Of a stretch of 49,778 nt of DNA, positions 6,347 to 16,351 are shown piece after piece; the stretch's first letter is position 1, and every line of letters starts with the position of its first letter. The notes under the pieces were generated by a model. The model was given only the letters and a program-made list of their open reading frames with translations, made no database searches and was not told the DNA's origin. Both the position numbers and the translations under genes were made by a program. Location of the stretch: IMG/VR virus record IMGVR_UViG_2579778554_000010; one strand, 5' to 3'. This DNA is from a virus. Its lineage: Duplodnaviria > Heunggongvirae > Uroviricota > Caudoviricetes.

Positions 6347-6985
6347 TTAAATATCTTGTTGAATTTTAAAGCATACGCCCAATATGCAAGATAGATCATC
6401 CAGCATAATTGAAGGGTAGCGAGGATTCGTGGGGACTAAAAGAATATCCGGCCCTTCTATCTCCAGTTTACGAATGACAGGTGTTGTGGTCCCTTTGGGT
6501 AAGGCAAGGACAATATTTCCTGGTTGTACGGTTCGATCGGGATCAACAAAAACTGTTGAACCATTTGGGATGGAAACTCCCCCACCAGATGTTGACATAC
6601 TGTCACTCTCTAGAACAACTGCAAAGGTATTGACCGGGATTTCTCCGACAAGCTGCACACAAGAGGTTATTGAGGAATTTTTCATATAATCACTCCAGCT
6701 TGCTGCCTGCTGAAGTGATAGTAGCGGAACCGTTTTTATCGGCGGTAAAGATAGATCAAGCGAATCACCTGTATTTAACTCTCCTCCATTAAGAAGCCAA
6801 TTTTCGTTTACTTTCAATATTTTTGCCAGTGAACTTATGTAACGCGAGGACGGCGCTCCTCCACCGTTCATCCATTGACTTACGGAGCCTTTTGATGCGC
6901 CAGTGCCATTGACAAGGTCTTTGCCTTTCAGGTTTAGCGCATGCATACGTTGGGTTATGCGTTCAGATATAGTTTGCTTGCTCAT
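6347..6985 (-). CDS. CI-type prophage repressor (N-terminal HTH, C-terminal S24 LexA-like autopeptidase domain)
   Basis: 212 aa; HTH-like N-terminus (GTGASKGSVSQWMNGGGAPSS); long C-terminal domain; divergent from a cro-like gene across an AT-rich intergenic region. Occupies the dicA position but is longer than K-12 DicA. Confidence 0.75.
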   Translation of the reverse strand: MSKQTISERITQRMHALNLKGKDLVNGTGASKGSVSQWMNGGGAPSSRYISSLAKILKVNENWLLNGGELNTGDSLDLSLPPIKTVPLLSLQQAASWSDYMKNSSITSCVQLVGEIPVNTFAVVLESDSMSTSGGGVSIPNGSTVFVDPDRTVQPGNIVLALPKGTTTPVIRKLEIEGPDILLVPTNPRYPSIMLDDLSCILGVCFKIQQDI

Positions 6986-7076: not shown

Positions 7077-7319
7077 ATGAAAAAATCAGAAGTATTAGGC
7101 TATTTTGGCGGAGTTGTTAAAACAGCCGCAGCTCTAGGAACGTCAAAAACCACAGTCAGCATGTGGGGGGAAGAGGTTCCGTGGAAATGGGCGTTGCTAA
7201 TTCAGGCAGTCACTGCCGGGGCGCTCAAATATGAGTTACACATACCGACGGTTGTCATTCCCGGTTCTGATCATAATCCGCCTTCTAACCAAGGGGGGAT
7301 TCATGAAAATCAGGCATGA
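7077..7319 (+). CDS. Cro-like small HTH regulator (DicC/YdaS position)
   Basis: 80 aa, first gene of the rightward operon opposite the repressor; start could instead be the upstream ATG at 7065. Confidence 0.6.
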   Translation: MKKSEVLGYFGGVVKTAAALGTSKTTVSMWGEEVPWKWALLIQAVTAGALKYELHIPTVVIPGSDHNPPSNQGGIHENQA

Positions 7320-7728
7320 GCACATCCGCATGGCGATGAATGCCTGGGCGCATCCGGACGGTGAAAAAGTTCCGGCAGCTGAAATAACCCGGGCTTATTT
7401 TGAGCTTGGTATGACGTTCCCGGAATTATATGACGACAGCCATCCGGAAGCCCTGGCTCGCAATACCCAGAAAATTTTCCGCTGGGTGGAGAAAGACACT
7501 CCTGATGCGGTTAAAAAAATTCAGGCGTTGTTACCAGCGATCGAAAAAGCAATGCCGCCTCTGCTGGTGGCCCGAATGCGCAGCCACAGTTCAGCTTATT
7601 TTCGGGAGCTGGTGGAGACGCGGGAACGACTGGTGAGAGACGCTGATGATTTTGTCGCAGTGGCGATCGCTGGTTTCAACCAGATGAATCGTGGTGGCCC
7701 TGCAGGAAATATTGTGGCTGTGCATTGA
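7303..7728 (+). CDS. YdaT-like protein (CII-position regulator)
   Basis: N-terminus MKIRHEHIRMAMNAW resembles recalled Rac YdaT; RBS AAGGGGGG upstream; overlaps the cro-like stop. Confidence 0.55.
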   Translation: MKIRHEHIRMAMNAWAHPDGEKVPAAEITRAYFELGMTFPELYDDSHPEALARNTQKIFRWVEKDTPDAVKKIQALLPAIEKAMPPLLVARMRSHSSAYFRELVETRERLVRDADDFVAVAIAGFNQMNRGGPAGNIVAVH

Positions 7729-13614: not shown

Positions 13615-13905
13615 CCTGGCCTGAAGCATTAACAACGGTAGGAATTGCGATGGCGGTGGCGCTGGTGGTGTATTCGATTTGCCGCTGGGGATAAAAACGG
13701 TTTGCGGGAAAAGGAGAGTTAAGTAGAATTGCAGCGGGTGCTTGAGGCTATCTGTCTCAGGCATGAACACCAAAAGGCAGATAGAGAAAAGCCCCAGTTA
13801 ACATTACGCGTCCTGCAAGACGCTTAACATTAATCTGAGGCCATATCTATGCTCTACACACGTAGGTTAGCCTCTTACGTGCCGAAAGGCAAGGAGAAGC
13901 AGGCT

Positions 13906-14061
13906 ATGAAGCAGCAAAAGGCGATGCTAATCGCCCTGATCGTCATCTGTTTAACCGTCATTGTGACGGCACTGGTAACGAGGAAAGACCTCTGCGAGGT
14001 ACGAATCCGAACCGGCCAGACGGAGGTCGCTGTCTTCACAGCTTACGAACCTGAGGAGTAA
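13906..14061 (+). CDS. hok: Hok-family type I toxin (HokD/RelF-like), 51 aa
   Basis: MKQQKAMLIALIVICLTVIVTALVTRKDLCEVRIRTGQTEVAVFTAYEPEE matches recalled Hok/RelF; an in-frame upstream extension from 13849 may be a mok-like reading frame; an antisense sok-like RNA is expected upstream but was not mapped. Confidence 0.85.
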   Translation: MKQQKAMLIALIVICLTVIVTALVTRKDLCEVRIRTGQTEVAVFTAYEPEE

Positions 14062-14130: not shown

Positions 14131-14151
14131 ACCCGCTTCGGCGGGTTTTTG
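14131..14151 (+). terminator. Intrinsic terminator downstream of hok
   Basis: ACCCGCTTCGGCGGG hairpin followed by TTTTT. Confidence 0.7.
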
Positions 14152-14162
14152 CATTAGTCTGG

Positions 14163-14191
14163 TTGACAAAAATAGAAAAATGCGAAAATAT
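14163..14191 (+). promoter_or_regulatory. Candidate sigma70 promoter for the two-gene cassette
   Basis: TTGACA at 14163-14168, 17-bp spacer, AAATAT -10-like hexamer. Confidence 0.4.
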
Positions 14192-14226
14192 GTGGTTTAC
14201 GAATTCTAAAAAAAGCGAAACTTGAA

Positions 14227-14877
14227 ATGAATGAAAATCAGTTAGCTCCTTGTTGGGAATTTCAACCTTATCTTGCTGAAAACTATGTTCGCCACTTGTT
14301 GGCGGAGATCGCTAACGTACTTGAGCAGCTGTACTATCATAAGCACGCATTAGACAGCAACTGGTCTGAAGGTGTAAGGGCTTATGATTGGGTCAGAAAT
14401 CATCTTATTCAAAATGAAGATGCAATTCCTGGCCTTGAGATGATTTCCAAGGGGTTGGACTATGTAGTTGCTTTAAATAAAGTTCCGCTACAATTTACCA
14501 AAGATTGCATTAATAACCCCAAAAAGAAACATCGTCTGCGTCGAAATAAAGTAGAGTATGAGCAGCTCTCATTGTTTGGTGATGTTGAGGCTGAGCAAGA
14601 TATTACATGGCGAGTCATAGCTGAGCCTTTTTTATCCGAAGAGGGCGATGGTGAATTAGAGTCCACACTGCCTCGTTGGGAGGTAGCTCTTGTTGGATTT
14701 AATACTTATGGTGCTCAGATTAGTATAGTTTCTCATCAATCTACAGCATCGATGCCGCTTATGCCTCTTGATTATAACACACTCCCTGACGAAGCGGAGA
14801 TTAATAAGGTGCCTCTTCGTCGGCGTACGAAGGATAAAGATTTGGATGTGAGCAGTGATGGAACATCAGGTGAATAA
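14227..14877 (+). CDS. Hypothetical protein, 216 aa (cassette gene 1, unknown function)
   Basis: AT-rich ORF with no recognisable motif; 3' end overlaps the downstream gene by 23 nt. Confidence 0.6.
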   Translation: MNENQLAPCWEFQPYLAENYVRHLLAEIANVLEQLYYHKHALDSNWSEGVRAYDWVRNHLIQNEDAIPGLEMISKGLDYVVALNKVPLQFTKDCINNPKKKHRLRRNKVEYEQLSLFGDVEAEQDITWRVIAEPFLSEEGDGELESTLPRWEVALVGFNTYGAQISIVSHQSTASMPLMPLDYNTLPDEAEINKVPLRRRTKDKDLDVSSDGTSGE

Positions 14878-15961
14878 CTTCACTGAGTATCGGGGTGATA
14901 AGCTCAAACTAGCGAGAATGGCTGTTGGGCTTTCTTGTGAAGAGTTAGCCGAAAAAATTGGCAAGACAAAGCAATTCGTTAGCAAACTGGAGAAGGGGTG
15001 CAGGCCATCGGAGCAATGTCTTGAGTTAATATCTTCAGCGCTTATGATTAAGTCCAGTTTTCTTTTTACTGAACGAAAATACGCTCTGGAAAGTGATGTC
15101 TGCCATTTTCGGAGTAAGAAGTCCAGGACTCAAACGCTGACTAATAGTGTATTGGCCAGGGCTGAGATTCTTAATATTATAATTTCTGCTGTTGAAGGTG
15201 AAATCGAATTTCCTGACGTTAACATACCGGAGCACCCAGGGGCTGAATTACTTACTCCGAATGATATTGAGCGAGTGGCAGAAGATTGTCGCCGTGCCTG
15301 GAATTTAGGTCTTGGCCCTATATCATCAATGGTTAAATTGGCGGAGAGTTTAGGGGTAATCGTTGCGCATGTTACGGGAGTCGATGATCGTGTTGATGCT
15401 TTTACTGTTCACAATAACAGGCCTGTTATCATCAGGAACAATGTTAAAAAAAGCATATGTAGATTTCGCTCTGATTTAGGTCATGAATTAGGGCATTTAG
15501 TAATGCATGAGGGCATAACGACAGGTGATAAACTTACGGAATCACAAGCCGATCACTTTTCGAGCGCCTTATTAGTTCCCAGGTTATCTTTCATTAAAGA
15601 ATTTCCACGAATACGAGGTAAGCAATTCGACTGGAATGCTCTGGTTGAATTTAAACTTAGATGGAAAATCAGCCTTAAAATGTGTATTTATCGAGCCAGC
15701 GCATTAGGCTTATTGACCCAGGAACAGGCAAGAACTGGCTATATGCATCTTAATTCCAGAGGGTATACGAGAGTTGAACCTGGTGATGAACTTTTGCGCC
15801 CTGAAGAACCCGGCATGCTGGCCGAGGCGATTGAAATGCTGGATGATGCAACCTGGCTAAGAATTCTTATGAAAACTGGCTTGAGCCAAGATTTAATTCG
15901 TGAGTTGTTCTCCATCAACAGACCTATTACAAATCCAAGAAATATTTTCCAGATTGTTTGA
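14855..15961 (+). CDS. HTH-XRE / ImmA-IrrE-family (M78, COG2856-like) zinc metallopeptidase fusion, 368 aa
   Basis: N-terminal Cro/C1-type HTH (LSCEELAEKIGKTKQFVSKLEKG) and central HEXXH motif (HELGHLVMHE). Confidence 0.7.
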   Translation: MMEHQVNNFTEYRGDKLKLARMAVGLSCEELAEKIGKTKQFVSKLEKGCRPSEQCLELISSALMIKSSFLFTERKYALESDVCHFRSKKSRTQTLTNSVLARAEILNIIISAVEGEIEFPDVNIPEHPGAELLTPNDIERVAEDCRRAWNLGLGPISSMVKLAESLGVIVAHVTGVDDRVDAFTVHNNRPVIIRNNVKKSICRFRSDLGHELGHLVMHEGITTGDKLTESQADHFSSALLVPRLSFIKEFPRIRGKQFDWNALVEFKLRWKISLKMCIYRASALGLLTQEQARTGYMHLNSRGYTRVEPGDELLRPEEPGMLAEAIEMLDDATWLRILMKTGLSQDLIRELFSINRPITNPRNIFQIV

Positions 15962-15965
15962 GTAT

Positions 15966-15986
15966 ACCCGCTTCGGCGGGTTTTTT
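15966..15986 (+). terminator. Intrinsic terminator after the cassette (same sequence as 14131-14150)
   Basis: ACCCGCTTCGGCGGG hairpin followed by TTTTTT. Confidence 0.7.
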
Positions 15987-16121
15987 GTTTTTATTTTCAA
16001 CGTGTTTGAAGTTTTGGACGGTGCCAGAATAGAATCAAAAATACTTAAGTAGCGCGCAGGGAGAAGAGGGATGGACCCCGAACAGGGGGAGTGCTATTTA
16101 TCTGGAAGGATTCTGTTGATG

Positions 16122-16292
16122 AAAATCGAAGAATTACGTGAAATTTTTAGTGAAGATGGCCTCTATGCTGTGCGCGTTGAGAATGGGGGTATTACCTACA
16201 CAGCGTTAATTCCTGATGATCATGTAGTGTTATCTGTTGAGGCATTCATTGAATACTTGGAAAGACTCGGTTTCAAGGTAGTTCGGGAATAA
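16122..16292 (+). CDS. Hypothetical small protein, 56 aa
   Basis: Internal ATG of the 16071 track ORF with GGAAGGA upstream; no domain recognised. Confidence 0.35.
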   Translation, partial: KIEELREIFSEDGLYAVRVENGGITYTALIPDDHVVLSVEAFIEYLERLGFKVVRE

Positions 16293-16351
16293 GTTATAAT
16301 ACGTGAGCCAGCCTGAACAACTGGCAACCTGCAGCGCCATTGGAGATGACA

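Follow-up and report, generated by a model that had tools for sequence, protein, structure and literature searches.

The two-gene cassette that we describe here, which lies in the nin region of a lambdoid prophage of Escherichia coli, is most probably a RosmerTA anti-phage defence module of the toxin-antitoxin (TA) type, carried as a moron in which two translationally coupled genes have a putative promoter and a terminator to themselves. On the evidence of their sequences, both genes are members of RosmerTA, the upstream one of the toxin family RmrT and the downstream one of the antitoxin family RmrA, a system that was described in 2022 and is already catalogued. The system itself is not new: both genes are picked up by models in common use for the annotation of defence systems (PADLOC). 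Its identification extends the list of defence systems in the prophage IMGVR_UViG_2579778554_000010 by one, and would explain a low-GC island whose products RefSeq labels 'hypothetical protein' (rmrT, WP_001004956.1) and 'helix-turn-helix domain-containing protein' (rmrA, WP_000401168.1). It also draws attention to a RosmerTA subtype, that of the toxin model PDLC03929, which is widespread in E. coli, and to an unusually tidy exchange site at the hok terminator. The alternation of at least four RosmerTA alleles and of other TA-like cargo at this one terminator makes it a clear case of moron turnover.

Genetic organisation of the cassette

The window, i.e. the whole stretch of 49,778 nucleotides that was analysed, is by its gene content a complete lambdoid prophage of the E. 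coli type, which encodes a large terminase (gpA) and a tail protein J in addition to the features in Table 1. The cassette is found between the hok/sok module and the DUF968-RusA-Q genes. The original prediction had proposed two overlapping genes on the + strand, and both open reading frames were found, the second of them spanning 14855-15961 when it is read from an alternative GTG start that gives 368 aa. RefSeq chooses the ATG one codon later, and the two genes then overlap by 20 nt. The claim of a segment of about 1.85 kb with low GC content was borne out as well: the GC content of the cassette is 41.5%, against a mean of 51.9% for the window, and it is the minimum among all 1815-bp segments of the window. 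The search with Rfam found no RNA family within the cassette. The AT-richness extends past the cassette to about position 16340, across the next small gene, which is a rem allele.

Table 1. Coordinates of the cassette and of the surrounding prophage features in the window.
Feature	Position	Strand	Basis or remark
Lambda-type integrase	1-1131	minus	
S24-type autocleaving repressor	6347-6985	minus	immunity region
sok RNA	13736-13911		upstream of cassette; Rfam
hok			upstream of cassette; Pfam HOK_GEF
Left border, intrinsic terminator of the hok transcript, direct-repeat copy 1 (ACCCGCTTCGGCGGGTTTTT)	14131-14150	+	exact 20-mer; terminator-like call
Putative promoter/operator, direct repeats TGGTTGACAAAAATAGAAAAATGCGAAA and TGGTTTACGAATTCTAAAAAAAGCGAAA, 33 bp apart	14160-14220	+	direct-repeat family D1; putative function
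rmrT, predicted toxin, 216 aa, ATG start	14227-14877	+	PADLOC RmrT PDLC03929
rmrA, predicted antitoxin/repressor, 367 aa, ATG start	14858-15961	+	PADLOC RmrA PDLC03943
Right border, terminator copy 2, end of the rmrTA operon	15966-15985	+	exact 20-mer; terminator-like call
DUF968 gene	16626-17672		downstream of cassette
RusA	17685-18059		downstream of cassette
Antiterminator Q	18056-18877		downstream of cassette

The region between the left terminator and rmrT contains two direct repeats, the first of which includes a consensus -35 box (TTGACA, 14163-14168). The box that had been read as a promoter is present; the promoter scan did not call the site, because its -10 box is weak. A double motif resembling TGGTTGACA, with its two copies 31-33 bp apart, directly follows the terminator in every RosmerTA allele that we found in this slot. 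These repeats may be tandem -35 boxes, an operator for RmrA, or both.

Both genes match RosmerTA models

The product of gene 2 was identified by PADLOC as RmrA (PDLC03943, E 6e-105, positions 2-342 of the 370 of the model). Its predicted layout comprises an XRE helix-turn-helix (HTH), a zinc peptidase of the M78 (ImmA/IrrE) type, and a C-terminal domain; Pfam places HTH_3 at residues 17-63 and Peptidase_M78 at 177-282, with the motifs HELGH at 209-213 and ESQADHF at 228 (E228) in the numbering of the 367-aa protein. The HTH and the HELGH zinc-peptidase motif had both been recognised from the sequence, and the role that was then suggested for such a protein, that of the antitoxin or regulatory partner in a two-gene module, is the one that the RmrA assignment predicts. 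The protein is 29% identical over 301 aa to the verified RmrA of E. coli OLC-716 (E 2e-35). It also aligns from end to end with the NCBIfam model of the spr1629-family antitoxin (E 1.5e-45), which ties it to the Rosmer-family system RipAB of Streptococcus pneumoniae; with a score of 156 bits, far under the cut-off of 335 bits, it does not qualify as an equivalog of spr1629.

Gene 1 had been described as a protein with no recognisable domain, and indeed it has no match in Pfam or NCBIfam; a search of its sequence against solved structures gave nothing either (best E 0.21). Its PADLOC match is to RmrT PDLC03929 (E 4.6e-25), with residues 7-209 aligned to positions 5-195 of the 198 of the model, and it matches phrog_5786 with an E of 8e-85. 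A word-indexed search produced 21 relatives, of which the named ones are from Enterobacterales, and an exhaustive profile search produced 69 representative relatives (clusters) of about 200 aa. All 63 of the relatives that were aligned match PDLC03929 (best E 3e-72). The suggestion that gene 1 could be a candidate new effector therefore holds in part: by sequence it belongs to the toxin family of a probable prophage defence module, but it is not new, because both genes match existing models of RmrT and RmrA and PDLC03929 is already catalogued.

RmrT is predicted to be a soluble and acidic protein (pI 4.9) in which we found no transmembrane or hydrophobic segment (maximal Kyte-Doolittle average over 19 residues of 0.84). 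An AF2 model built from the alignment of 63 sequences (pLDDT 83.4, pTM 0.73), which supersedes a poor earlier one from 13 close sequences (pLDDT 62), has in this order two long helices, a mixed sheet, and a low-confidence, mostly unstructured acidic tail, the disordered C-terminus at residues ~175-216. It is conceivable, if rather doubtful, that the predicted toxins of the PDLC03929 family are soluble proteins whose fold and activity are unseen among TA and defence effectors; they could be degenerate nuclease-like enzymes (D43/E110/R129/E133) held by the protease-antitoxin with ClpXP. If this were true, the mechanism of RosmerTA could be approached with ease through a prophage cassette that is very common in E. 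coli.

The two genes travel together

The co-occurrence of relatives of gene 1 with M78 genes had been proposed as a check. We analysed the genetic context of six remote relatives, and in all six a Peptidase_M78 gene (342-384 aa) is encoded directly downstream on the same strand, mostly with an overlap. The partner gene has the HTH in every displayed copy for five of the six, and in one copy out of three for the remaining one (P0058). These pairs are found in unrelated phages and prophages and in very different settings: they adjoin a phage DNA polymerase gene, separate Mor from the lysis genes in a Mu-like prophage, stand between RecT/YqaJ and an integrase, or lie beside a cluster of DNA methylase, Vsr and HNH genes. 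Identity across the aligned relatives of gene 1 ranges from 16% to 42%, and the persistence of the pairing at such levels of divergence argues strongly for a single functional module made up of both genes. The subtypes of the two partners also appear to go together: going by the numbering of the models, our cassette combines model 1 of RmrT with model 1 of RmrA, and phage Tritos combines the two models numbered 5.

Comparison with characterised systems

In E. coli OLC-716, the RosmerTA pair confers protection from phages, and no delta-rmrA mutant could be made (Millman et al. 2022, 10.1101/2022.05.11.491447). This pair resembles our cassette in being a two-gene E. coli operon with the toxin upstream and an RmrA of ~370 aa made up of an XRE HTH, a Zn-peptidase and a C-terminal domain. 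The toxins, on the other hand, are different: the validated one has 239 aa and corresponds to PDLC03935, whereas ours has 216 aa and corresponds to PDLC03929, and we found no sequence similarity between them. RmrT proteins are diverse (PMC10440598). Since our RmrT is unlike that of OLC-716, the prediction that it is toxic and acts in defence relies on the antitoxin and the architecture that the two systems have in common.

Other characterised members of the family show the same mixture of likeness and difference. The RipA/RipB pair of S. pneumoniae (Spr1630/Spr1629) depends on ClpX to keep its toxin in check, and RipA targets the sliding clamp DnaN (PMC12795458). This is a Rosmer-family pair like ours, and the model of its antitoxin spans the whole of gene 2; a relationship between RipA and gene 1 was not detected with NCBIfam, because gene 1 has no match there. 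The pair E101_02645/E101_02644 from a prophage of E. coli E101 is a TA system in which a domainless toxin is followed by its antidote (Rousset et al. 2021, 10.1101/2020.05.25.114553); a later source cites the pair as a case of RosmerTA whose toxin makes ClpP essential. Our pair is also carried by a prophage of E. coli, and its predicted toxin, likewise without a recognised domain, precedes the predicted antidote; it is set apart by its accessions (WP_001004956.1/WP_000401168.1 vs. WP_001179380.1/WP_000481765.1). Finally, the RmrT(D5)/RmrA pair of the Gordonia phage Kita has a narrow-spectrum anti-phage activity, and its toxin, which has a predicted membrane region, depolarises the membrane (Ernits et al. 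2023, PMC10440598). The likeness lies in a RosmerTA with a protease-domain antitoxin on a phage or prophage, and the difference in the toxin, which in our case has no hydrophobic segment. The cassette is not one of the pairs already studied in E101, OLC-716 or LF82/Tritos, from which accessions or sequences distinguish it, and our literature search gave no paper in which WP_001004956 or WP_000401168 is cited.

Proposed function and alternative explanations

Where other RosmerTA systems have been studied, antitoxins of the RmrA type are essential wherever the toxin is present, and the restraint of the toxin needs ClpP in E. coli E101 and ClpX in S. pneumoniae and Pectobacteriaceae. By analogy with these systems, RmrA would repress its own operon through the HTH, with the double TGGTTGACA repeats as a possible operator, and would hold the soluble RmrT inactive, probably with the help of ClpXP. 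Infection by a sensitive phage could then disturb the control exerted by RmrA or ClpXP and free RmrT, which would arrest or kill the cell before the end of the phage cycle. Such an abortive infection would protect the population of lysogens and, with it, the prophage.

One may ask whether the cassette is instead a plain addiction or stabilisation moron, acting by post-segregational killing as hok/sok does and giving no protection against phages. It adjoins precisely such a module, in other prophages the slot holds further TA-like cargo (a Fic/Doc gene and an HTH antitoxin-like pair), and RipAB of S. pneumoniae has been described in connection with the induction of competence and not with phage defence (PMC12795458). 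Yet protection against phages was shown for two members of the family, those of OLC-716 and Kita, and the spread of the cassette over prophages and phages is typical of defence morons. We thus regard plain addiction as unlikely, while noting that addiction and defence are compatible and not mutually exclusive roles. A reversed polarity, with the HTH-M78 peptidase as the toxin and the 216-aa protein as its inhibitor, has a precedent in PD-lambda-2B/A: in this system from the E. coli pangenome, an Xre-peptidase fusion proved toxic on its own, a toxicity that the gene upstream of it relieved (Vassallo et al. 2022, PMC9519451). Our cassette also has a fusion of an Xre-HTH and a peptidase 3' of a toxin-like gene. 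PD-lambda-2 is, however, made of three genes with a HigB-like one in first position, and both the HigB-like gene and the third gene are missing here. Gene 2 fits the models of RmrA far better than PD-Lambda-2_B, which is absent from its PADLOC matches at E <= 0.1, and in pairs of the RosmerTA type it is the upstream gene that is toxic and the peptidase gene that is essential or undeletable. These differences make the reversal very improbable.

Gene 2 combines an HTH with an ImmA-type M78 peptidase, a pair of domains that it shares with ImmR and ImmA of ICEBs1, and it has weaker matches in PADLOC to CapP (E 1.6e-14) and CapH (1.5e-4). In ImmR/ImmA, as in CapH/CapP of CBASS, the HTH repressor and the M78 metallopeptidase make up a switch that responds to stress or infection. 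This raises the idea of a fused repressor-protease that governs the induction or expression of the prophage and regulates gene 1 as an accessory; we attach almost no probability to this idea. The repressor and the peptidase of these systems are separate proteins that control another operon, whereas the domains are fused here and are partnered with a predicted toxin, and the partnership with the RmrT family is kept in unrelated elements. The prophage carries its own S24 repressor, separate from the cassette. The latter lies outside the immunity and integration module, in a terminator-bracketed position of the nin region, 7 kb from the repressor and between hok and Q, and most of the otherwise collinear relatives are devoid of it. 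We therefore discarded an element-induction switch of the ImmR/ImmA type. The possibility that gene 1 is a conserved core gene of the nin region, which would have spoken against the original prediction, was also ruled out by its lack in most relatives. The reading as a RosmerTA defence module is the one that we retain.

Insertion and allele turnover at the hok terminator

The borders of the cassette record how it arrived. The 20-mer ACCCGCTTCGGCGGGTTTTT had been noticed at both ends, and it occurs exactly twice in the window, with no match in 100 shuffles. In PPompW (Stx2a phage record LC567818), a relative that lacks the cassette, a lone copy of the terminator lies between hok and the promoter region of rem, and this promoter region is collinear with the sequence located 3' of the second terminator copy in the window. 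The second copy hence re-creates the original junction between terminator and rem. As cassette-free relatives have a single terminator at this place, a unit of 1835 bp was inserted at the hok terminator, with duplication of the latter. This agrees with the earlier view of a cassette recombined in at a terminator, and the single-terminator state was seen only where both genes are missing.

The cassette is frequent and mobile. It is present, identical base for base, in 237 of 5426 complete E. coli genomes (about 4%), among which are those of E. coli 042, ABU 83972, VR50 and ML35; among the phage records of GenBank, we found none with the exact cassette at high identity. In the prophages of IMG/VR that carry it, the two proteins are 100% identical, while identity is 83-100% for hok and 78-100% for DUF968, and there are two alleles of rem. 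Identical cassette proteins amid differing flanking genes point to a recent horizontal spread among prophage backgrounds.

The same slot, with the same borders, is occupied by at least three other RosmerTA alleles. One is a close variant, whose two proteins are 94% and 97-98% identical to ours. Another, of the type of phage Tritos and E. coli LF82, has an RmrA that is only 32% identical and an RmrT that matches PDLC03933/34. A fourth type, found at locus L088, is bracketed by identical copies of the terminator and encodes an RmrT and an RmrA that are 24% and 43% identical to ours. Most of the loci with the hok terminator in a non-exhaustive sample have no insert, and the others include, besides RosmerTA, a Fic/Doc gene, an HTH antitoxin-like pair, or an antirepressor. 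We found no paper describing a hotspot at the hok terminator. This slot may be a dedicated exchange site, in which unrelated RosmerTA alleles are swapped by recombination between conserved borders, i.e. the terminator on the one hand and the double TGGTTGACA motif on the other.

A variable cargo slot behind the hok terminator

Lambdoid prophages have a slot for variable cargo immediately 3' of the hok terminator, the intrinsic terminator of the hok transcript, as seen in the window (14131-16340) and in five other loci (L001, L015, L088, L076, and L103). It holds at least four RosmerTA alleles across different prophages, and copies of the terminator flank the allele in all three cases examined at both ends, i.e., the window type, the Tritos type (phage Tritos and Escherichia coli LF82), and the fourth type, at L088. 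In other prophages the slot is occupied by a Fic/Doc gene, by an HTH antitoxin-like pair, or by an antirepressor of the ORF6N/P22_AR type, and it is empty in most prophages compared. The low GC content of the cassette extends through the downstream rem allele, which matches Rem of the cassette-free relative PPompW at the N-terminus and diverges from it at the C-terminus; at this position in E. coli 042, RefSeq annotates a partial pseudogene.

Features in and around the slot
Feature	Position	Strand	Remarks
rem allele (phrog_340)	window 16071-16292		small ORF following the cassette; ATG 16119
TGGTTGACA-like repeat pair	window 14160-14220
TGGTTGACA-like repeat pair	L001 1946-1990
TGGTTGACA-like repeat pair	L088, first 80 nt after terminator
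YdaT_toxin-domain ORF	window 7231-7728	+	165 aa; domain match E 1.5e-9
sok antitoxin RNA	window 13736-13911		Rfam, 117 bits

Every RosmerTA allele in the slot opens with two TGGTTGACA-like direct repeats spaced by 31-33 bp, which may constitute a shared operator or tandem promoters; RmrA identity between the alleles having this pair is just 32-43%. The subtypes of the predicted toxin and antitoxin seem to co-vary, as suggested by the equal rank of the best PADLOC models for RmrT (PDLC03929-03942) and RmrA (PDLC03943-03956) in both pairs tested: first and first in the window, fifth and fifth in phage Tritos.

State of the cassette and other toxin-related genes

RosmerTA is probably inactivated in E. 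coli FDAARGOS_1249 (NZ_CP069459.1), where the cassette match, otherwise identical, is split in two pieces over ~2.97 kb and an IS5-family transposase is annotated beneath it. The hok/sok module adjoining the cassette in the window looks intact, because the sok RNA match overlaps the mok/hok leader. Elsewhere in the window, the YdaT_toxin-domain ORF adjoins the immunity region on its downstream side, an arrangement shared with Rac-type prophages.
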